From: Candidatus Saccharimonadota bacterium
GTDB lineage: Bacteria > Patescibacteriota > Saccharimonadia > Saccharimonadales > Saccharimonadaceae
Reading direction: 5' to 3'
NCBI GenBank assembly: GCA_009778675.1
Contig: WRFU01000001.1
Coordinates: forward strand, 797 to 64,796
Length of the DNA stretch: 64,000 bases
Of the stretch, positions 1,245 through 44,520 are shown piece after piece. The position numbers and the translations under genes were made by a program. The notes under the pieces are model-generated. The model worked only from the letters and a program-made list of their open reading frames with translations, was not told the DNA's origin and ran no database searches. Within the stretch, counting starts at the first letter, position 1, and each line of letters begins with the position of its first letter.

Positions 1245-3104
1245 CTAAGCTTGTGGCGTTAGCTGCGGTTGGTTCTGCTGCTGCGATGCCACCTGCCCGG
1301 CTGGTGTAGTAGAAACTAATGATTCTTCAGTCTGACTGGCGATGATTTGTACATGGACATGATTTTGCCCGGCAAAGAACAGCCCTTGTCCAACTGGGAA
1401 GTTCGACAGCAATTTACGCTCGCCATCGGTTAACTTAAATACATCGGCCAATACATCCACCGCACTGGCTGATTGCTTTAGCAGCAATGTAATCGATGAG
1501 TTGGCCACAATCGAACGCCCCATTTTGCTGCCCATAAAATCTTCGACGTCTTGCGTGACGGTGGTCAGTCCTAGGTAATATTTACGGGCGCGCTTAGCAA
1601 TACTAAAGATAAAGTTAGCGCTATCATCATATTTCATCAACTGCCAGGCTTCATCGACAATCAGCATGCGCCTTTTTTGCCGAGCCCGGGTAATATTCCA
1701 AATATGGCTCAGCACAATATACATTGCTACTGGCCGCAATTCATCTTCTAAGTCGCGAATATTAAACACCACCATTTGGTTGTTAATTTCCACATTACTT
1801 TGCTGACTAAAAATACCAGCAAACGTACCCGTGGTATATTTGCGCAGTCGCTGCGCCAATTGTGGGCCAGTGCCTTCCATGTGCAGTAACGTGTCGTACA
1901 GATTACTAATCGTTGGCGGTATAGAATTGTGGGTTAATGGGTCACTAGTAATACCAGCTCGCGCGTAAGTATCAATTAGAGCTTGGTCTAAATCAGCTTC
2001 TTCGGCCGGTGTCAGGGCTGGCATCGCCTGGCCATTAGCGGCAATTTGTGCCCCACCTAACATCAACCTAAACAGACCATGCAGTGTTACCAGGTTAGAT
2101 TTTAGGGCGTTTTCGGCATCGTCGCTATCAATCACCTTGGGTAGATCAAACGGATTAATCCGCGTGTCACTACTTAAACTTAGGCGGATATAACTGCCAC
2201 CCACAGCGTCGCACAACTTTTGGTATTCATTTTCTGGGTCTATAATTAACACTTCGGTGCCAGTCATCATACTACGCAGGGCTTCGAGCTTGACCGTGAA
2301 CGATTTACCAGCGCCAGACTTAGCAAACACTACCATATTGGCATTTTCTAAACTAAACCGATCAAAAATCACCAAACCATTATTGTGCATATTAATGCCA
2401 TACAGCACACCCTTGTCTTGGGTTAAATCGGCACTAGTAAACGGAAAACTAGTACTAATTGCCCCAGTATTCATATTACGACGAATTTGCAACTGATCGG
2501 CCGCCTGTGGCAGGGTCGCATTTAACCCCTGTTCTTGCTGGCTACTAGCCACTTTACTAAACACCATTTGTTGGCCAAAAATTGTTTCAATTTTATGCTG
2601 CACAAAGTTCAGCTCTTCTAAGCTATCGGCGTAAATAGTAATATATAGCCCAAACCTAAAGAACTTTTCTTGGCCTAACTGCAATTGATCGCGTAAGTTC
2701 TCGGCGTCACTAATCGCCGCTTCTAGTTCTGGATCACGGACTCGCCCTTTTTCGCTGTTAATACTCATGCTGGCTTCTAACTGAGTCACTTTTTTGCGCA
2801 GATTCTTTAAAATCACTGCACTTTCCACCGGGTAAATATACATGCTAATATCTAACACCTCGTCGATGTTAATCAACGGGCTTAGCCAGCCAGTGTATAG
2901 CGTTCGCGGATAGCCATAAACATACATGGTGCGGCCAAATTTGGTGCCCAGGCGGAAGTGGTCGCTGTTAATTTCTAAACTACTCGGCGCGATAAGATCG
3001 CGCATAGTAGTAATGCCAGTTTGAAAGGCCTGCTCAACTTCAGCCTGCTCCTTGGCGCGTTGCTCGGCGGCAATATCTATAACGTCTTTTTGCTTTTTGG
3101 CCAT
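1245..3104 (-). CDS. virB4: VirB4/TrbE/PrgJ-family type IV secretion ATPase
   Basis: 619 aa. Walker A is FAKSGAGKSFTVK and Walker B is MLIVDEAWQL. The N-terminal domain has the usual VirB4 layout. It shares an operon with PrgI-like and VirB6-like genes. Confidence 0.9.
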   Translation of the reverse strand: MAKKQKDVIDIAAEQRAKEQAEVEQAFQTGITTMRDLIAPSSLEINSDHFRLGTKFGRTMYVYGYPRTLYTGWLSPLINIDEVLDISMYIYPVESAVILKNLRKKVTQLEASMSINSEKGRVRDPELEAAISDAENLRDQLQLGQEKFFRFGLYITIYADSLEELNFVQHKIETIFGQQMVFSKVASSQQEQGLNATLPQAADQLQIRRNMNTGAISTSFPFTSADLTQDKGVLYGINMHNNGLVIFDRFSLENANMVVFAKSGAGKSFTVKLEALRSMMTGTEVLIIDPENEYQKLCDAVGGSYIRLSLSSDTRINPFDLPKVIDSDDAENALKSNLVTLHGLFRLMLGGAQIAANGQAMPALTPAEEADLDQALIDTYARAGITSDPLTHNSIPPTISNLYDTLLHMEGTGPQLAQRLRKYTTGTFAGIFSQQSNVEINNQMVVFNIRDLEDELRPVAMYIVLSHIWNITRARQKRRMLIVDEAWQLMKYDDSANFIFSIAKRARKYYLGLTTVTQDVEDFMGSKMGRSIVANSSITLLLKQSASAVDVLADVFKLTDGERKLLSNFPVGQGLFFAGQNHVHVQIIASQTEESLVSTTPAGQVASQQQNQPQLTPQA

Positions 3105-3970
3105 TATCTTGCCTCCTGTGGGGGTGGCGGCGTACCTTCGCCCCTTTGCACGTACAAACTAGTCACTTTACTGAAATCAGCCAACGGCTCATGCACGGCC
3201 GTATCTGGATTGTAAAAATTGTAGAACAGAGTTGATAGTTCCTTGGTGTCTAACCGTACACTATGGACGCCCATCTGGAACAATCCGTTAACTACTAAAT
3301 CGACCCGATTATTTATCTCGGTCACCGCTTTGTCATAGGTAGCACGATCAATTTTGGTTACCGTTGCATCAGCACTACCACTACTGAACAGCTTTTTAAA
3401 GAAACCCTTACTTTGTGCCACAGCGTTTTCAATTGATTCCACGCTGGCGTACTGTACCACAATATAAAAACTCTTATCCATAATATTGGCCTCTTGGCTT
3501 AAAATATCAATAAATTGCATGTAGTCATCCATCAGCACATTCAGCAGCATGTTGTCTTGACCACGACGAATATCGGCCAAACGCTGCAAATAAGGCCCAA
3601 TATCAACTCGCTGCGAACGCACTAAAATCTGAGTGGTAAAATACAGCGAATTTAAGAAGTTTTGATAACTGTATTCCACACCATCTTTTTCGGTCTGACT
3701 CATCAAATCAAAATTGATCGATTCACAGGCCACCACTGCCCGAAAAGTGCCATCTTTCATGATCAACATACCATCGCGAATTTGCGAAACCTGCAAACTA
3801 TCCTGAGTACTTATAACCCCTGGTTTTTTGGCTGCTTTTACCGCCTTTTTGTCGTCGTCTTTGGTTGCCCCCGCCCCTTGCACGTTAGTGGCTGCAGGTG
3901 CAGTGGCAGCGGGCGCAGTTGCACCAACCGGGTTGGCGTTGGGAATTGCTGATTGTTCATTTGGATTCAT
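3104..3970 (-). CDS. T4SS-associated protein of unknown function
   Basis: 288 aa with an Ala/Thr/Pro low-complexity N-terminus followed by a globular domain. Its stop overlaps the virB4 start (TAATG). An SD (AAGGTGGG) lies upstream. Confidence 0.55.
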   Translation of the reverse strand: MNPNEQSAIPNANPVGATAPAATAPAATNVQGAGATKDDDKKAVKAAKKPGVISTQDSLQVSQIRDGMLIMKDGTFRAVVACESINFDLMSQTEKDGVEYSYQNFLNSLYFTTQILVRSQRVDIGPYLQRLADIRRGQDNMLLNVLMDDYMQFIDILSQEANIMDKSFYIVVQYASVESIENAVAQSKGFFKKLFSSGSADATVTKIDRATYDKAVTEINNRVDLVVNGLFQMGVHSVRLDTKELSTLFYNFYNPDTAVHEPLADFSKVTSLYVQRGEGTPPPPQEAR

Positions 3971-34430: not shown

Positions 34431-34523
34431 CGTCATCCTGAACTTGTTTCAGCCGTCATTTTGGGCTCGTGAGCCGTCATCCTGAACTTGTTTCAGCCGT
34501 CATCCTGAACTTGTTTCAGGATC
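34431..34523 (+). repeat. three direct copies (plus one fragment) of the CGTCATCCTGAACTTGTTTCAG(GATC) hairpin repeat
   Basis: Copies lie at 34431..34452, 34475..34496 and 34498..34523, with a fragment at 34454..34460. The last copy supplies the GIY-YIG C-terminus (DPETSSG-stop). Confidence 0.9.
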
Positions 34524-34796
34524 TAGCAAATCTTTCCACTCGGGGTTAATACTCTCAATCAAATTTATTTTCCAGTCCCTGTGCCAATTCTTAAGCTGTT
34601 TTTCGCGCTCGATAGCACTCGTCATATCTGCACCTTCTTCATAATATACTAATTTATAGGTTTTATATTTACTGGCAAAATTTGATTTTATACCTAATCG
34701 GTGCTCGAGTACTCGCTTCGATAAGTCACTAGTAGTGCCAATATACAATGTTCCATTTTTTCGGTTCGACAAGATATAGGTGTAGGCTGTTTTCAT
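34500..34796 (-). CDS. GIY-YIG (URI) domain nuclease, UPF0213-like
   Basis: 98 aa with YTYILSNRKNGTLYIGTTSDLSKRVLEH and a typical size. It is embedded in hairpin repeats. Confidence 0.8.
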   Translation of the reverse strand: MKTAYTYILSNRKNGTLYIGTTSDLSKRVLEHRLGIKSNFASKYKTYKLVYYEEGADMTSAIEREKQLKNWHRDWKINLIESINPEWKDLLDPETSSG

Positions 34797-34818: not shown

Positions 34819-34843
34819 GATCCCGAAACAAGTTCGGGATGAC
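34819..34843 (-). repeat. inverted-orientation variant of the hairpin repeat
   Basis: gatcccgaaacaagttcgggatgac. Confidence 0.8.
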
Positions 34844-34927
34844 ACTATATGAATTCAGACGACTATTTCACGTGAAATAAGCACTACTTAATAATGCCTT
34901 CACGTGAAAGTTGTGTAAAACCACCTT

Positions 34928-35623: not shown

Positions 35624-36562
35624 TTAATGCAAGCGGAGGCGACGTTTTAAACCGCTTAACACCTTAAAAGCCGCATACCAGCCACGTTTACGGGGCTTTT
35701 CCCAGGTACCAAGGTAGCTTTTAGCCTGACCACCAAAAGATTTTTTGAACTTGGTAAAGCCATGCCAGGGGTGGGCAGGATCGCCGCTATCTGTTATACC
35801 ATAAAAATCGAACCATTTTAGACCTTTGACTTTGGCATCGATTATCATCCGGGCTAGTAGTATCGTGCTAGCAGCTAGTTTACGGTGTTCGTAGTCGGCC
35901 GCGGCATGGGCGTAATAGCGAGTAGTAGGGGAGTCATATACCAATGCGGCAGCGATAACAGGTTGGCTCGTGCCAGCCTCTGGCTTGTCTAATGTGACGT
36001 AATATAGCGTAGCCGCCCCAGAATCCACCTGTGCCCACAGATAATCCTCGGTGTGTACATGGATGCTATTATGCTTTGCCACAACACCGAGTAAATCAGT
36101 TAGATAGTGGATTTTGCTGGCATCGGTGGTGTGGTGCACACTTAGCCCTTTTTTGTGGTAATTATGGTACAGATTACGGTTGGTTTGCTGCATGCCGGCC
36201 AAAACGTCATTTTCGCTAGCCGATAAATCTAGCACCCAGGTGTGTTCGGGGTTAACTTGGCGGCTTTTATGAAAACCGTACTGATGCAGCGTATCTGTCG
36301 ATATTAGGCCAGTTGGCTCTATTCTGGTAAACATGACCCTTTTAGCCCGCGCCAGCTTGTGTAGGGAGTTAAATGCGCCTTCAAAGCCATTTTTGCCGCT
36401 GATATATGGACCGTAGGGTAGGTATAAATACCGCCCCAGGGGTGTGAACTCTAAAATCGCTAAATATGACCACCCCTGGCCGCTATCAGTAAATACTTGC
36501 TTGCCCAGGTGCTTGTTGAACCTTTCCCACTGCTCAGATTGCAAAAAGTGCTTTTCTTCCAT
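35624..36562 (-). CDS. FemAB-family peptidoglycan aminoacyltransferase
   Basis: The start is moved to MEEKHFLQSEQWERFNKHLG, a typical FemX-like N-terminus. That ATG is 6 nt after TATACT. The C-terminus has FDFYGI...GFTKFKKSFGG. The 75 aa upstream in the track ORF look non-coding. Confidence 0.6.
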   Translation of the reverse strand: MEEKHFLQSEQWERFNKHLGKQVFTDSGQGWSYLAILEFTPLGRYLYLPYGPYISGKNGFEGAFNSLHKLARAKRVMFTRIEPTGLISTDTLHQYGFHKSRQVNPEHTWVLDLSASENDVLAGMQQTNRNLYHNYHKKGLSVHHTTDASKIHYLTDLLGVVAKHNSIHVHTEDYLWAQVDSGAATLYYVTLDKPEAGTSQPVIAAALVYDSPTTRYYAHAAADYEHRKLAASTILLARMIIDAKVKGLKWFDFYGITDSGDPAHPWHGFTKFKKSFGGQAKSYLGTWEKPRKRGWYAAFKVLSGLKRRLRLH

Positions 36563-36734
36563 GCCTCTAGTATACGCTATTGATATATTAGCACTGCTAT
36601 GGTATAATACGGTCATGCTTAAGTTGTAGCTGCGTTGGTTATGACTCAGTGCAACTTGATAACTTGATTCTCGCGCTGTTATGAGCGTGTGACAATAATC
36701 TGAACGTTTGGTTCTATCGAGAAAGAGGTAGGTT

Positions 36735-37082
36735 ATGAGATTTGAAGAAACCCCAGGTTTGTTTGGGTCTGGTGTAGGCAGCGCCACAAACGGTGATTTT
36801 ACGTGTGGTGTATGTCATACAAGATACAATGAGGGCAATGACGAAAGCCGAGATTACTTTGGCGATTCTGTCCCTAACGCTTTCTTCGCTGGGCTGGAGA
36901 TCTGTGGCGATTGCTTTGAGCGGGTTGAAGACGAAGTTCTTAGAAGAATGAGTGATATTCTTCCATGGTATGGGAGAATCGTGGAAAAACGTCTGGCTAT
37001 GGCACTGCAACAACAAGCTGCAATTGATAGCTTGCCCGATGAGCCGCCCGTAGATAAGGAAGGTAATGGCCATGTCGGTTGA
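36735..37082 (+). CDS. hypothetical Cys-pair (zinc-ribbon-like) protein
   Basis: 115 aa with CGVC...CGDC and an SD (AAGAGGTAGG). I prefer it over the two long antisense track ORFs, which have poor composition. Confidence 0.45.
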   Translation: MRFEETPGLFGSGVGSATNGDFTCGVCHTRYNEGNDESRDYFGDSVPNAFFAGLEICGDCFERVEDEVLRRMSDILPWYGRIVEKRLAMALQQQAAIDSLPDEPPVDKEGNGHVG

Positions 37083-37975: not shown

Positions 37976-39145
37976 ATGTCTGAAAAATTACCAAATAGCG
38001 ACGAAGTACTCGCAGCACACCAGCCAGAACAGTTAACTGAACAGCAAACTCAGATTCTTGGTGCCAAACTGGTTGAAATTAACCGAACGCTTGATACTTT
38101 ACCAACTATCACGACGGAAGGAATGCCCGAGGTCGACGATGGCCATGTTTTAAGTTTAAAGAGTGCTGAGGTTGATAAGCCAACGGGCGGTATTTTTATA
38201 AAAAGTGAAAAGTCTGATACGGTAGCAGATAGCTATGTCAACACTGAACAGGCAACTGATGCCCTAGGGCAGCTAGACGAGGAAACCGTTAACGGCGCAC
38301 AAATATACCAAGCAATGCAAGAAGCGCAGCAAGGATCAAGGCTAGAGCTAGATAACTTAGCGGCCATATCGAACCAAGACGCTCGTACTGTTGACGCTTT
38401 TTTGGGCCAGGAACGCATAGGTGGTGGCGCGCAGATGCTTGGTAACGAGCAGATTGAACTTGAAAATGGTGAGTGGCTTAGCCGGGATGAAATAACAGCA
38501 GCACTTGAAAAGCTGTTAGTAGACGACGGCAACAGCGGAGAGGTCGCACCGACACCACAAGATGGAGGCGAAACTTTAGAATCTGCTAAAAAAATCACTA
38601 AACGCGAAAAACTAGATAAGTTTAAAAAAGCAGCAGCCGTTATTGGTGCTACGGTGGCCACTGCTTTACTAATTAGCGTACCGGCCATTGCTCAAGCTCC
38701 AGGGTATCACCAGACGCCAGAGCCGACTCCGGCCATCACTTATACGGTTGAGACCCCAACGGCAGAGACTGTTAACGATAGGCTTACTGGCCCAAGGATA
38801 GGTGATATCAATCAGCTTAAAGAGGGGACTGAGTATACGATTGCCAGTGACCGCAGTGATGTCAGCGGTGAGATTGGTAATAAGTACCGTCAGCCTGGTG
38901 AATATACGGTTGATCGGGCGGCATTTTTAAATAGCGAAGGTAAAATTATTGGCACCACTCATCAACCCGGAGAGGATATTGAACAAGCTAAAACTGCTAT
39001 CGAAAATGAAACAGGACAAAAAGTTGATAAAACCGAAATACACTATAACCAGGGTGAAAGTTTAGAACATAATAAGCCAACTGGTTGGGTGGGGTATAAT
39101 CAGAGTAACTACGAATCAATTGGCAATGTTATGGATGGGAAATAA
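37976..39145 (+). CDS. hypothetical protein with central TM helix
   Basis: 389 aa with an acidic N-terminal half, a TM helix (AAAVIGATVATALLISVPAIA), and an extracytoplasmic C-terminal half. Confidence 0.45.
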   Translation: MSEKLPNSDEVLAAHQPEQLTEQQTQILGAKLVEINRTLDTLPTITTEGMPEVDDGHVLSLKSAEVDKPTGGIFIKSEKSDTVADSYVNTEQATDALGQLDEETVNGAQIYQAMQEAQQGSRLELDNLAAISNQDARTVDAFLGQERIGGGAQMLGNEQIELENGEWLSRDEITAALEKLLVDDGNSGEVAPTPQDGGETLESAKKITKREKLDKFKKAAAVIGATVATALLISVPAIAQAPGYHQTPEPTPAITYTVETPTAETVNDRLTGPRIGDINQLKEGTEYTIASDRSDVSGEIGNKYRQPGEYTVDRAAFLNSEGKIIGTTHQPGEDIEQAKTAIENETGQKVDKTEIHYNQGESLEHNKPTGWVGYNQSNYESIGNVMDGK

Positions 39146-39146
39146 A

Positions 39147-39389
39147 ATGCAACTACAACCGGGTGAAAAAATCACGCTAGACGACAACAAGGAGTACTTA
39201 GTTATTGGACGGGCTGATAGCTATGTATTGCTGGCAACAATCACAAAACCACTGGAATTGCAGGTGGTATCAGAAACTATTAGTGGTAAAAGTGTTCAAT
39301 TGGCTCGCGTTAAAGATAAAGCTTTGATTAAAACGGTTACTAGTAAAATTGCCCAAAATCTGGCTAGACCAATCGTAACGACGGATTAA
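39147..39389 (+). CDS. small hypothetical protein
   Basis: 80 aa starting at MQLQPGEKITL. Its 3' end overlaps the convergent tsaD by 26 nt. Confidence 0.4.
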   Translation: MQLQPGEKITLDDNKEYLVIGRADSYVLLATITKPLELQVVSETISGKSVQLARVKDKALIKTVTSKIAQNLARPIVTTD

Positions 39390-40614
39390 CATCAAGGTCA
39401 TATGGATCGGTAGGTTCGTCTTTTTTGGTGTGCCAGAAGCCGGCAGCTGCGACCATGGCGGCATTGTCGGTGCACAGATCTATGGGCGCATAGTCGATGT
39501 TAATTGGCAAGCGCTGTTTTAATTGTTGGCGCAGGTATTGGTTGGCCGACACACCACCAGCAATTACCACTGTTTTAGGCTTAAAATGATCATAAGCTAG
39601 TAGGGTTTTGTCTACCAAAGTGTCAACGGCGGTTTTTTCGAAACTAGCCGCAAAATCATAGCGTTGCGGATCTGTTAATAGCTCGGCTAGCTGGTGGCTG
39701 GGGAAACTAATTGGTTTACCGACCGCTTTCTGCACGGCTCGCAAAGTAGCGGTTTTTAGACCAGAAAAGCTGAAATCATACGGTGAATCTAGCTTGGATT
39801 TTGGTAATTTATATTTGTTACGGTCGCCTTTTAGTGCCGCTTTACTGATTTCGGGTCCACCAGGGTAGGGTAGGCCAATAATTTTGGCAACTTTATCGAA
39901 CACTTCGCCCACAGCGTCATCACGCGTGCTGCCAATAATTTCAAAATCGCCGTGGTTTTTAAGCATAATTAATTGGGTGTGCCCACCGCTTACCACGAGG
40001 GCTAGAATGGGGAAGGTTGGCAAAGACGAAGCCAGATGATCAGCCTGATTTTCGCCCTCCAAGCCGAGCGTTTTGTCGCTACGCGACAAAGCCGACTGCC
40101 CAAAATCCGGCTGATTATCTGGCTTCGTCTTTAGAAAATTAGCATAAATGTGGCTTTCAATATGGTGAATGGGGTAAAGTGGTTTGTTTTTTAGAATTGC
40201 CAGCGTACGAGCAGCTAGTGTACCAACTAGCAACGAACCAATTAACCCCGGCGCGTATGTTACAGCAATAGCGTCGATTTGATCCCAGGGGTCAGAGCGC
40301 AGCTGCTCAGTCGAATTTTCGCCCTCCAAGCCGAGCGTTTTAGCCTGCAACTTCTTGGGGCTAGCCGCCAAGAACTTGGCAGGTAAAGCCGACTGCCCAA
40401 AATCCAACCGAGCAGCTGCGCTCTGAACCGCTTCATCAATCACGGCATTAATTACTTCAATATGGCTACGAGCGGCTACCTCTGGCACCACGCCACCGTA
40501 AACTTTATGAATATCGATTTGTGAATTGACCACGTTGCTTAAAATATGTGTGCCGTCTTGCACCACGGCCGCCGCGGTTTCATCGCAACTGGTTTCTATG
40601 CCCAAAATTCTCAT
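39364..40614 (-). CDS. tsaD: tRNA N6-adenosine threonylcarbamoyltransferase with two in-frame repeat insertions
   Basis: MRILGIETSCDETAAAVV, HIESH and GGVSAN motifs. It is about 75 aa longer than typical TsaD. The ATG at 40614 is 7 nt after TGtTATAAT. Confidence 0.9.
   Translation of the reverse strand: MRILGIETSCDETAAAVVQDGTHILSNVVNSQIDIHKVYGGVVPEVAARSHIEVINAVIDEAVQSAAARLDFGQSALPAKFLAASPKKLQAKTLGLEGENSTEQLRSDPWDQIDAIAVTYAPGLIGSLLVGTLAARTLAILKNKPLYPIHHIESHIYANFLKTKPDNQPDFGQSALSRSDKTLGLEGENQADHLASSLPTFPILALVVSGGHTQLIMLKNHGDFEIIGSTRDDAVGEVFDKVAKIIGLPYPGGPEISKAALKGDRNKYKLPKSKLDSPYDFSFSGLKTATLRAVQKAVGKPISFPSHQLAELLTDPQRYDFAASFEKTAVDTLVDKTLLAYDHFKPKTVVIAGGVSANQYLRQQLKQRLPINIDYAPIDLCTDNAAMVAAAGFWHTKKDEPTDPYDLDVNPSLRLV
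40025..40129. repeat. palindromic insertion element, copy A, in frame within tsaD
   Basis: Outer inverted repeats are gacgaagccagatgatcagcc / ggctgattatctggcttcgtc. Internal modules are attttcgccctccaagccgagcgtttt and aaagccgactgcccaaaatcc. The centre is ttgtcgc-ta-gcgacaa. Confidence 0.8.
40293..40425. repeat. palindromic insertion element, copy B, in frame within tsaD
   Basis: Outer inverted repeats are cagagcgcagctgctc / gagcagctgcgctctg (perfect 16 bp). It carries the same two internal modules as copy A and a different imperfectly palindromic centre. Confidence 0.8.
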
Positions 40615-40660
40615 CACCCCTATTATAACACGCCTTTCTACGTAAAATATGCACGGAGCG

Positions 40661-43916: not shown

Positions 43917-44070
43917 AGAAACATGCAAGAACAGCAATGGTCTTGCAGCCGGAGAGTAAGGTTGATTGGAAAGGTGCAGCGTAAAAAACTGTTGCCTTTT
44001 TATCATCCGAGCTTTCCACCTTAACAATTAATCATCATCTGATTCATAGCTTTAGCTAGTTTGTCTAAAC

Positions 44071-44520
44071 TTTGAGCTGATCATGCGGCGAGTATGTTTT
44101 TTACCTTTTGGTTTGACTCATGCTCTTCGCATGATCGGCTTGAACAATAGACTTCAATCTAGACTTCGAGTTGGTCATGCGGTAAATATGATTTTCAAGT
44201 TTTCTTGATTTGTTGTGTTTATCGCATGACCGACTTGAACGATGGATCTTTCTAAACTTCGAGTTGGTCGTGTAGCGCATGTGCTTTTTGGTTTTTAACT
44301 TTAATTTACGTTCGCTACACGACCAGCTGGAACGATAGATTCGGCCTAAATTTTAAGCTTTGTAATCGTGGTAAATGTATTAGTTAAGTTTTCTTGATTG
44401 GTATGTTTATTGCCTTATTGGTTTAGGATCGAGCCGGTAGCTTTTACTTTCGAGTTGATCATGCGGTGAATATATTTTTAAGTTTTCTTAATTCTATGTT
44501 TATCGCACGATCAACTTGAG
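44071..44520 (+). repeat. five tandem ~94-nt units, each a 17-26 bp hairpin with a U-rich ~30-45-nt apical region
   Basis: Hairpins are R1 44071..44144, R2 44165..44239, R3 44258..44332, R4 (degenerate) ~44352..44440, and R5 44449..44520. Example arms: ttcgagttggtcatgcggtaaa / tttatcgcatgaccgacttgaa. Confidence 0.85.

Follow-up and report, generated by a model that had tools for sequence, protein, structure and literature searches.

In-frame hairpin inserts in tsaD of a termite-gut Saccharibacteria genome are probably copies of a dispersed palindromic element

The tsaD gene of a termite-gut Saccharibacteria genome, studied here within a window of 64,000 nucleotides (the whole stretch of DNA analysed), contains two palindromic inserts that keep the reading frame and share a core found again at other loci. 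These segments are probably copies of a dispersed, translated insertion element resembling, by description, the Rickettsia palindromic elements (RPEs). Such an element would be small, non-autonomous and hairpin-forming, and would make up a dispersed repeat family of this genome. Both copies would have landed in insertion-tolerant surface loops of TsaD, where they would persist only by virtue of preserving the frame and containing no stop codon. Transcription and translation would turn them into disordered loops, 33 and 41 amino acids long, on an intact enzyme core, as selfish or near-neutral passengers of the kind known from Rickettsia.

To our knowledge, selfish palindromes lying in frame in essential genes have so far been seen as peculiar to Rickettsia. 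Rickettsia and Saccharibacteria are both ultrasmall and host-dependent, with reduced genomes, and the presence in Saccharibacteria of a comparable family with a different anatomy suggests that genome reduction repeatedly leads to such elements. The elements also suggest a general route to disordered surface loops in conserved enzymes. In practice, they make proteins longer, interrupt assemblies at the repeats and can misguide both the annotation of marker genes, tsaD among them, and their alignment for phylogeny.

Anatomy of the tsaD inserts

The host gene and the parts of both copies were located as follows (window coordinates). L286 is an insert-free, empty-site orthologue and L123 a further orthologue.

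39364-40617, minus strand: tsaD, encoding the tRNA t6A37 threonylcarbamoyltransferase subunit TsaD (open reading frame, PF00814, homologues and structure matches)
40022-40132, minus strand: copy 1, whole hairpin, with 31-nt arms at 40022-40052 and 40102-40132 that are 94% complementary
40021-40119, minus strand: copy 1 insert of 99 nt or 33 codons, DNQPDFGQSALSRSDKTLGLEGENQADHLASSL, missing in L286 by codon alignment
40053-40101, minus strand: copy 1 core, 49 nt, 65% GC, in sense order module B, hairpin GTCGC-GTA-GCGAC and module A
40035-40052, minus strand: copy 1 inner arm a', 18 nt, pairing at 16/18 positions with arm a
40102-40119, minus strand: copy 1 inner arm a, 18 nt, partner of a' at 40035-40052
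40022-40034, minus strand: copy 1 N', final 13 nt of the insert, 13/13 reverse complement of the native upstream flank, with no L286 counterpart
40120-40132, minus strand: copy 1 N, native codons (L)KTKP abutting the insert upstream and forming the outer stem with N'
40289-40429, minus strand: copy 2, whole hairpin, with 31-nt arms at 40289-40319 and 40399-40429 that are 87% complementary
40294-40416, minus strand: copy 2 insert of 123 nt or 41 codons, AARLDFGQSALPAKFLAASPKKLQAKTLGLEGENSTEQLRS, missing in L286 and L123
40320-40398, minus strand: copy 2 core, 79 nt, with modules A and B as in copy 1 flanking a 43-nt central hairpin (40342-40384)
40294-40301, minus strand: copy 2 N', 8 nt, 8/8 reverse complement of the native upstream flank
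40417-40428, minus strand: copy 2 N, native codons VQSA upstream of the insert, aligned with orthologues

The tsaD frame encodes 417 aa from a GTG start, or 416 aa from the ATG at 40614. Its product matched Pfam family PF00814 and about 8000 homologues, as well as the solved TsaD structures 6nak and 4ydu (E-values from 1e-66 to 1e-73). Membership in the Kae1/TsaD/Qri7 family (PF00814) was supported by a full-length match, by the conserved residues, with every residue invariant in 120 Saccharibacteria TsaD proteins retained, and by a confident AlphaFold2 core. The sequence-only reading had estimated TsaD to be about 75 aa longer than usual; the excess over the insert-free orthologue (P0004/L286) was 74 aa (33 + 41). 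Alignment with 6nak and 4ydu gave three blocks, broken exactly at both inserts, and the solved structures have no counterpart loops. The AlphaFold2 model had a mean pLDDT of 85, with core values above 90, and its lowest-confidence stretches (residues 80-97 and 169-189, pLDDT below 50) fall within the two inserts. In the model, both inserts are low-confidence loops on an intact TsaD core; orthologue alignment and structural model thus place the extra segments in two loops, in agreement with the surface peptides that had been proposed. An apparently long tsaD match (L160/L254) proved to be an artefact of a gene truncated by the contig end.

On the sense strand, each copy comprises 18-nt arm a, module B (GGGCAGTCGGCTTT), a small hairpin, module A (AAAACGCTCGGCTTGGAGGGCG) and 18-nt arm a', the unit measuring 85 nt (copy 1) or 115 nt (copy 2). 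The modules are an exact 27-mer (40048-40074 and 40315-40341) and an exact 21-mer (40088-40108 and 40385-40405), each occurring exactly twice in the 64-kb window. No module matches arose in 100 shuffles, and no third copy was present in the window at up to 3 or up to 6 mismatches. The modules of the two copies are identical at 48/48 positions, while arms a and a' agree at only 12/18 and 13/18; the small hairpin between the modules (40075-40087 and 40342-40384) varies in sequence and length. TRF detected no period-7 repeats in these arms.

The inverted repeats of copies 1 and 2 are the two strongest in the window. Folding of the tsaD sense strand gave −66.3 kcal/mol for copy 1 (z −9.2) and −87.8 kcal/mol for copy 2 (z −8.9) relative to shuffles. 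Rfam 15 covariance models yielded no family match; the best scores, from microRNA-precursor models (27 and 20 bits, where the gathering scores are 90 and 103), reflect generic hairpin likeness. The reading frame is open across both inserts, and DFGQSAL and KTLGLEGEN are encoded in both copies.

The earlier claim of two palindromic elements in frame inside tsaD was therefore confirmed by the open reading frame, the inverted repeats and the folding, and the common modules, the two shared peptides, the palindromic centres and the preserved frame held as well. Its dimensions required correction: the segments had been placed at 40025-40129 and 40293-40425, which identifies both inserts but is slightly too narrow, and the bounding inverted repeats are 31 nt long, not 16-21 bp.

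Copies of the core beyond tsaD

Other copies were sought in Logan contigs of the source termite-gut metagenome (run X1; run X2 represents the same contigs and is not independent). In ENA, the genome of the window is represented by assembly ERZ27257295, with contig k141_1029392 and its bin-mates. The element core occurred at at least three other loci, on contigs with a depth of 8.4-10.2x compared with 10.3-10.9x for the genome itself, and a 45-nt unitig across the core had a depth of 21, twice the genome depth. By depth alone, the extra contig copies are assigned to the window's genome, where they may be intergenic. An identical stretch of 59 nt (copy 1, 40048-40106) recurs elsewhere between arms that are unrelated in sequence yet complementary to each other. 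The private arms of copy 3 are perfect and 20 nt long (TAGGCTTTTTGCTATTTACC / GGTAAATAGCAAAAAGCCTA), those of copy 4 measure 22 nt around a centre of 11 nt, and copy 5 consists of module A alone. The AT-rich flanks of these contigs contradict an origin as tsaD alleles or chimeras. Neither an occupied/empty polymorphism nor an excision joint was seen in the DNA contigs, which drop rare variants.

A diverged core was found in frame in a different gene of a different genome, L289 (a GTDB representative, isolate Cf509_bin11, labelled Nomurabacteria). Here the insert occupies a loop ahead of the DPFCGTG motif of a 412-aa methyltransferase, the orthologues of which mostly lack the segment; a putative N/N' spans no more than 6 nt there. 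Module B encodes GQSA, the same as in tsaD, whereas an 11-nt centre shifts the frame of module A, giving KNARLGG instead of KTLGLEGEN. This change of frame in module A shows that it is the nucleotide sequence that is conserved. Judged from sequence comparison, the core is a dispersed repeat and not a TsaD-specific peptide. The proposed module search thus recovered copies in depth-matched contigs of the same metagenome and an in-frame diverged copy in L289. The contrary picture, a protein insertion confined to TsaD with no repeats elsewhere and no palindromes in orthologues, was not found; orthologues are palindromic at the same sites.

Protein searches were performed with the tsaD-frame peptide and a synthetic concatenation of the other frames. 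Besides TsaD, no protein with the core in any frame was detected among proteins of 230-790 aa in a collection of 5.8 billion, so in-frame residence is documented only for tsaD and the L289 methyltransferase. At the nucleotide level, the 18-mer CGCTCGGCTTGGAGGGCG was compared with GTDB genomes, and among the matches listed were chance matches in GC-rich genomes. A pattern of both modules with a 20-50-nt gap gave 0 matches, as did a 22-mer in JGI metagenomes and a 20-mer in viral contigs. A relaxed two-block pattern returned one true match, L289, and a looser version added three chance matches. A Pfam scan of ten neighbouring genes revealed no Y1/HUH transposase, and no transposase or nuclease attributable to the element was found; a GIY-YIG gene is located at 34500-34796.

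Target sites and origin of the stems

According to the codon alignment with L286, both inserts sit exactly between native codons, and this empty-site alignment showed no direct target duplication at either insert. Instead, the native upstream flank recurs without mismatch, in inverted orientation, in the outermost 13 nt (copy 1) and 8 nt (copy 2) of the stem. The flank codons have counterparts in orthologues: (L)KTKP aligns with IDAKP (L286), GSSP (L120, the closest relative) and DTEP (L123), and VQSA aligns with VQQA (L123), VQNA (L122) and VSKG (L286). In copy 2, complementarity beyond N' runs on imperfectly into 40289-40293. With 2 and 3 mismatches in the inner a/a' pairs and none in N/N', a/a' looks older than N/N'.

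Two inserts and one empty-site orthologue point, tentatively and with rather less than even confidence, to a fold-back synthesis step. The unit would be joined behind the upstream target flank N; the a/a' stem would then fold, and the 3' end of a' would serve as a primer for DNA synthesis running back over N. This would append N', an inverted copy of 13 nt in one case and 8 nt in the other, before the downstream DNA is rejoined. Fold-back copying would explain the seamless transition from stem to copy-specific sequence, the missing direct duplication and the variation of stems between loci around a constant core. The inverted target-flank duplication is a concrete, testable footprint of insertion chemistry.

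A more far-reaching version, which we consider possible but doubtful, is that the 49-59-nt core with a short stem represents a minimal mobile hairpin integrating by self-primed fold-back with an inverted duplication of the target site. Each insertion would build a new locus-specific extension of the closing stem; terminal repeats common to the family and direct duplications would both be missing, and a dedicated transposase might not be needed. If true, this would be a mode of insertion as yet undescribed among bacterial repeats, and it would explain the repeated gain of hairpin-encoded loops at the same sites in Saccharibacteria proteins.

Saccharibacteria orthologues carry unrelated hairpin inserts in the same two loops, often composed of period-7 repeats and their mirror image. 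Inserts of at least 12 aa at these sites were frequent among the roughly 90 tsaD loci collected, and many of them fold as hairpins (z from −2 to −8.5, compared with an average of about −0.3 for control windows of the same genes). The density of long inverted repeats in the inserts exceeded that of flanking DNA about 12-fold and that of the remaining tsaD sequence about 37-fold. Most TsaD orthologues are without the core, and the similarity between the window inserts and orthologue inserts at the same sites was not significant at the nucleotide level or at the peptide level (p = 0.09-0.8 for the peptides). In L120, core-less hairpins with 27-30-nt arms are present at both tsaD sites, and femAB contains an in-frame palindrome of 161 nt with perfect 31-nt arms, which the window's femAB lacks. 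The window copies and the L289 copy fold better on the sense strand, and 28 of 35 orthologue inserts fold better on the antisense strand. GC skew in the window was ambiguous for orienting the copies relative to replication.

Because L120 has core-less hairpins at the same sites, a mobile core could have entered the apex of pre-existing loop palindromes, in which case the copy-specific arms would be the old hairpin. Such hairpins also occur in many other Saccharibacteria, often with period-7 repeats and a mirror image, and the right arm of copy 2 encodes TEQL, resembling TDQL at the same position in L120, which would make part of this arm ancestral. However, the window arms show no significant similarity to the L120 arms or insert peptides, and part of the outer stem consists of codons native to the insert-free L286 as well, so that an inverted target duplication would be required at some stage under this scenario too. 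The perfect N/N' next to the imperfect a/a' fits stem extension at the time of insertion, and we regard entry into an old hairpin as improbable.

Less probable still, and unlikely in our view, is retention by the host, with the core acting as a functional structured nucleic acid, or its peptide as a functional addition, in growth-related genes, serving regulation or protein interactions, and not as selfish DNA. The complete identity of the modules could speak for this, as about 4-5 differences would be expected from arm mismatch rates in a rough calculation, but it may just reflect recent spread. The central hairpin is variable in sequence and length yet always paired. On the B-to-A strand, most arm mismatches take the form of G-T wobbles (about 11 vs 1), and this strand is the mRNA strand in both host genes, although C-to-T changes on the non-template strand explain this bias equally well; since the wobble bias can be mutational, strand asymmetry gives no verdict on RNA-level selection. 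Rfam offered nothing beyond the generic microRNA-precursor likeness, far below gathering scores, and absence of the core from most TsaD orthologues also argues against a retained function. A protein-level role is made unlikely by the reading of module A in two frames and by the lack of an AlphaFold2 fold.

It is also conceivable that nothing is mobile, and that slippage and template switching expand tolerant loops while gene conversion within tsaD makes the copies alike. Template switching creates and homogenises inverted repeats (according to PMC8604942 and PMC7202029), and inserts in these two loops are hypervariable across the phylum, often with period-7 tandem repeats and their reverse complement. 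Yet identical non-palindromic modules of 27 and 21 nt occur at at least three more loci with unrelated flanks and also in a different gene of L289, and the same 48 nt cannot arise independently by local slippage. This explanation is largely refuted by the extra copies and is very improbable. An assembly or amplification artefact can practically be dismissed: fold-back chimeras are known from some amplification and assembly procedures, but the ENA assembly and Logan's assembly of the public run do not differ in a single letter over the two elements, the reading frame is kept through the palindromes, and relatives from two separate JGI samples have hairpin inserts at the same sites.

Comparison with known repeat families

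A literature search found no description of such elements in Saccharibacteria. Compared by description, the closest known analogue of the proposed insertion element appears to be the Rickettsia palindromic element. Copies of an RPE are alike along their whole length, whereas here only a core of 49-59 nt is shared, the closing stem is locus-specific, and the outer part of this stem repeats the target flank in inverted orientation. RPE-1 to RPE-10 (Ogata et al. 2000 Science 290:347; 2002 Genome Res 12:808; via PMC6649704 and PMC10969869) are described in these sources as palindromic repeats of about 100-150 bp dispersed in the reduced genome of an obligate symbiont, and the hairpins here measure 111 and 141 nt. 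Multiple dispersed copies in one genome were likewise found, those at other loci being placed in it by contig depth. RPEs are further described as lying in frame in unrelated housekeeping genes, at positions compatible with the fold, and adding an extra peptide; for the present element such read-through is predicted in TsaD and the L289 methyltransferase. The cited accounts know of no associated transposase for RPEs. Each RPE family encodes a conserved peptide (as stated in PMC10969869), in contrast to the different frames of module A. The host also differs, being a member of Saccharibacteria/CPR from a termite gut. The likeness to RPEs put forward from the sequence therefore stands for dispersal, in-frame state and loop location, but not for anatomy.

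Bacterial MITEs, such as Correia/NEMIS, ERIC and RUP (reviewed in PMC10969869), are comparable as small, non-coding, non-autonomous, multi-copy and hairpin-forming repeats that are occasionally intragenic with in-frame fusions. They have family-wide terminal inverted repeats and direct target-site duplications produced by a DDE transposase. In the present element, the termini are copy-specific: copies 1 and 2 on the one hand and copies 3 and 4 on the other have unrelated arms, and arm sharing is limited to the inner parts within pairs of copies. An inverted copy of the upstream flank is present in place of a direct duplication.

REPINs (REP doublets) are mobilised by RAYT proteins, which are IS200/IS605-like Y1 transposases. 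Their hairpin units of about 100 nt are thought to move as single-stranded DNA, with no classical terminal inverted repeats or direct duplications, and in these respects they resemble the present element. However, REPINs have conserved arms (REP sequences), a variable loop and extragenic locations, and here the opposite arrangement was found, with a conserved centre and variable arms, two copies being intragenic. Palindrome-associated elements derived from IS200/IS605 have distinct subterminal hairpins at their left and right ends and insert 3' of a fixed tetra- or pentanucleotide; the element here is one long hairpin. The bases adjacent to the core were CCGG, TTGG, TACC and TGCC among the copies, which are too few to define a target.

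Long inverted repeats embedded in translated genes are also known as the coding palindromes of Nematomorpha mitochondria, for which concerted arm evolution was reported and template switching proposed as the mechanism that maintains them (PMC6649704). Those repeats encode conserved protein parts and do not form a dispersed family around a common core, whereas the segments in tsaD are loop inserts missing from orthologues.

The host gene and its two inserts

The window is part of a 106-kb contig assembled from a metagenome (ENA), and the public runs in which it occurs are termite-gut metagenomes. The host gene, tsaD, is surrounded by genes for a Mur ligase, hypothetical proteins, femAB, a 98-aa GIY-YIG protein and valS, in broad synteny with relatives. 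Every one of the nearest TsaD homologues found by homologue search came from Saccharibacteria. Insert borders were set by codon alignment with loci L286, L120, L122 and L123 from other genomes. The L286 orthologue (protein P0004, 342 aa) has no insert, and its accession points to the same ENA assembly series.

Features of the tsaD locus
39364..40617, minus strand: tsaD ORF
40021-40119: site 1 insert (copy 1), 99 nt, between native ...CTA AAG ACG AAG CCA and CCA ACC TTC CCC...
40022-40052/40102-40132: inverted repeat of copy 1, 31-nt arms, 94% complementarity
40294-40416: site 2 insert (copy 2), 123 nt, between native ...GTT CAG AGC GCA and GAC CCC TGG...
40289-40319/40399-40429: inverted repeat of copy 2, 31-nt arms, 87% complementarity

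As the sequence-only reading had proposed, the two segments share two modules and the frame is open across both. Module A (27-mer; 40048-40074 and 40315-40341) and module B (21-mer; 40088-40108 and 40385-40405) have exactly two copies each in the window; no third copy was found there at up to 3 or up to 6 mismatches, and shuffles gave zero matches. That reading had also located the segments in the right place, although their true coordinates are slightly wider, and had noticed the inverted repeats, whose proposed size of 16-21 bp was too short. These repeats are the top two by strength across the 64 kb, with no comparable inverted repeat in other coding regions of the window. Single-strand folding of the tsaD sense strand gave -66.3 kcal/mol for copy 1 (z-score -9.2) and -87.8 kcal/mol for copy 2 (z-score -8.9).

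On the sense strand, both inserts consist of an inner arm a (18 nt), the core, the inner arm a' (18 nt) and N', an inverted copy of the native flank N. The core runs from module B (GGGCAGTCGGCTTT) through a small hairpin, whose length is 13 nt in copy 1 and 43 nt in copy 2, to module A (AAAACGCTCGGCTTGGAGGGCG), with a GC-content of 65% versus 44% in the window. N' matches the reverse complement of N, which borders the insert directly on its upstream side, at every position (13/13 nt for copy 1 and 8/8 nt for copy 2), while a and a', which belong to the insert, pair at 16/18 and 15/18 positions, respectively. The long stem is therefore composite: its inner part is insert-borne, and its outer part is formed by native tsaD codons paired with their own inverted duplicate. 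Direct repeats were absent from the insert borders of both tsaD sites in the codon alignment.

The inserts add loops, probably disordered, to an intact TsaD enzyme, since the protein keeps all residues invariant in 120 Saccharibacteria TsaD, the solved TsaD structures 6nak and 4ydu match it in three blocks whose breaks coincide exactly with query residues 64-107 and 170-201, and the AlphaFold2 model (mean pLDDT 85, core mostly >90) has its lowest pLDDT (<50) at residues 80-97 and 169-189, within both inserts.

A dispersed core and its known counterparts

The sequence-only reading had called for a search for module copies beyond tsaD, and these were found in depth-matched contigs and in a methyltransferase gene of another MAG. 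The former came from Logan contigs of the source metagenome, for which the two runs, X1 and X2, yield identical contigs and are not independent; as contigs and not reads were surveyed, rare empty or excised forms would escape. The genome had a depth of 10.3-10.9x and the other core-bearing contigs, with different flanks, 8.4-10.2x; copies 3-5 were assigned to the window's genome by depth alone. At copy 3, two contigs terminate in the core, and a core unitig of 45 nt reaches a depth of 21. Its arms are perfect (20 nt, TAGGCTTTTTGCTATTTACC / GGTAAATAGCAAAAAGCCTA) and unrelated to the tsaD arms, and a stop is met in the tsaD-type frame. In copy 4 the centre is 11 nt long and the arms are 22 nt, with two mismatches; only the inner CTATTTACC is common to it and copy 3. 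Copy 5 is module A alone. Identical modules thus occur at no fewer than four loci, whose centres and stems differ. The GC-rich core is thus a multi-copy dispersed repeat, and its self-complementary stems are copy-specific. Other copies in this genome may be intergenic.

Exact-pattern scans for both modules with a 20-50-nt gap gave no match in GTDB representative genomes, nor did exact-pattern scans of JGI metagenomes and of viral contigs. A pattern permitting short centres recovered one true relative, located on the 160-kb contig L289 of a MAG, Cf509_bin11, that bears the label Nomurabacteria. Here the core is embedded in frame within a 412-aa methyltransferase, directly before the DPFCGTG motif, where most orthologues have a short loop; the in-frame state and the loop location are common to two host genes. 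Module B is identical to that of tsaD and in the same frame (GQSA). The small hairpin at the centre differs (TGCC-GAA-GGCA, 11 nt), so module A, with 3 changes, falls in another frame and is read as KNARLGG. Since module A is read in different frames in the two genes, the core is conserved as nucleotide sequence and not as peptide. Protein searches with the element peptides, whichever the frame, gave no further host among proteins of 230-790 aa. Beyond the LEWL motif, the methyltransferase (L289 6417-7655) has a second variable region, another site of insert turnover, where the closest relative (P0123) is ~25 residues longer.

The sequence-only reading had likened the inserts to Rickettsia palindromic elements (RPEs), and a functional parallel was borne out: both are in frame, palindromic, multi-copy, translated (presumably so here) and found in a reduced symbiont genome (for RPEs, PMC10969869 and PMC6649704). 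However, RPE families each encode a conserved peptide (PMC10969869), whereas the tsaD element shares the core only and has one module read in two frames. By the tests run, it is a functional analogue of RPEs and not a member. Classical MITEs are defined by terminal repeats common to the family and by direct duplication of the target; the element shows neither, and REPINs have the inverse architecture. The sequence-only reading was aware of no such elements in this kind of genome, and full-text searches likewise found no paper linking them to Saccharibacteria or the candidate phyla radiation.

Hairpin-encoded loops in relatives and a proposed insertion step

TsaD length in Saccharibacteria ranges from 341 to 437 aa, and the variation falls at the same two sites. 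Many orthologue inserts form hairpins (z-scores -2 to -8.5, versus an average of ~-0.3 for control windows in the same genes). Long inverted repeats in inserts have ~12x the density seen in flanks and ~37x that of the remaining tsaD sequence. Several insert arms are period-7 tandem repeats (L155 1704-1776, L249 1742-1769, L251 1941-2021, L242, L250, L148), with units such as CTTTCAG x4, GGCGACT x4 or TCGCCCA x3.7 on one side facing their reverse complement on the other. Additional period-7 arrays are present in L251 tsaD at 2339-2361 and 2632-2664.

The closest relative, L120 (74% aa identity), carries hairpins at both tsaD sites without significant similarity to the window's element. Its femAB (2452-3651) contains an in-frame 161-nt palindrome at 3028-3188 with perfect 31-nt arms. 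This palindrome is absent from femAB of L123 and of the window (35624-36787, minus strand), so the latter represents an empty site for the L120 insertion. Hairpin-encoded loops thus recur in genes of this phylum, with the core family of the window as a lineage-restricted case.

We infer that the a-core-a' unit is a non-autonomous mobile hairpin, which would survive in essential genes only when in frame within a tolerant loop and would be translated as a disordered peptide. Fold-back synthesis is our tentative preference for the mechanism of insertion, on the basis of two inserts and one empty-site orthologue. The unit would join behind flank N, the a/a' stem would form, the 3' end of a' would prime copying of N into N', and the strand would rejoin downstream DNA. 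Such a sequence of steps would explain how the stem passes without a break into private sequence, why a direct duplication is missing, why N/N' pairing is perfect but a/a' pairing is not, and why both tsaD copies have the same sidedness.

Entry of the core into the tip of hairpins already present, the main alternative, agrees with the core-less hairpins of relatives at the same sites but seems rather unlikely. The core might also act as functional RNA or single-stranded DNA, given that the modules are identical although the arms diverged, that the centre always forms a hairpin, and that arm mismatches on the module B-to-A strand are, by our count, mostly G-T wobbles. However, C-to-T changes on the non-template strand can explain the wobble bias, Rfam gave no match, and a sense-strand advantage is not consistent among orthologue inserts. 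Purely local slippage was excluded because unrelated loci share 48 nt.

Other repeats and genes near tsaD

The tsaD-femAB interval (37976-39389) holds a 389-aa ORF without a Pfam match and an 89-aa ORF, at a place where relatives are empty or carry just a short RelB-like gene; the pair may be a lineage-specific insertion. An intergenic array at 44063-44339 comprises three related tandem hairpins with a period of ~95 nt and arms of ~17-34 nt (e.g., TTCGAGTTGGTCATGCG...CGCATGACCGACTTGAA), a family distinct from the tsaD element.

The hairpin repeat (C)GTCATCCTGAACTTGTTTCAG(G) is present several times in the flanks (34431-34525, 34820-34845) of the GIY-YIG gene (34500-34796, minus strand, 98 aa, PF01541), with no sequence link seen to the tsaD element. 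The TCCTGAACTTGTTTCAGGA motif, also in these flanks, recurs as an inverted repeat with 34-nt arms upstream of tsaD in L157 (1270-1426), an unrelated Saccharibacteria MAG, and the repeat seems to be phylum-wide. In many Saccharibacteria loci the palindrome TTTCACGTGAAA, often paired, lies downstream of the tsaD region (flanks of L128, L131, L136, L226, L233, L234, L239 and L249), and it occurs twice near the GIY-YIG gene of the window (34866-34912); it resembles a conserved operator-type site.
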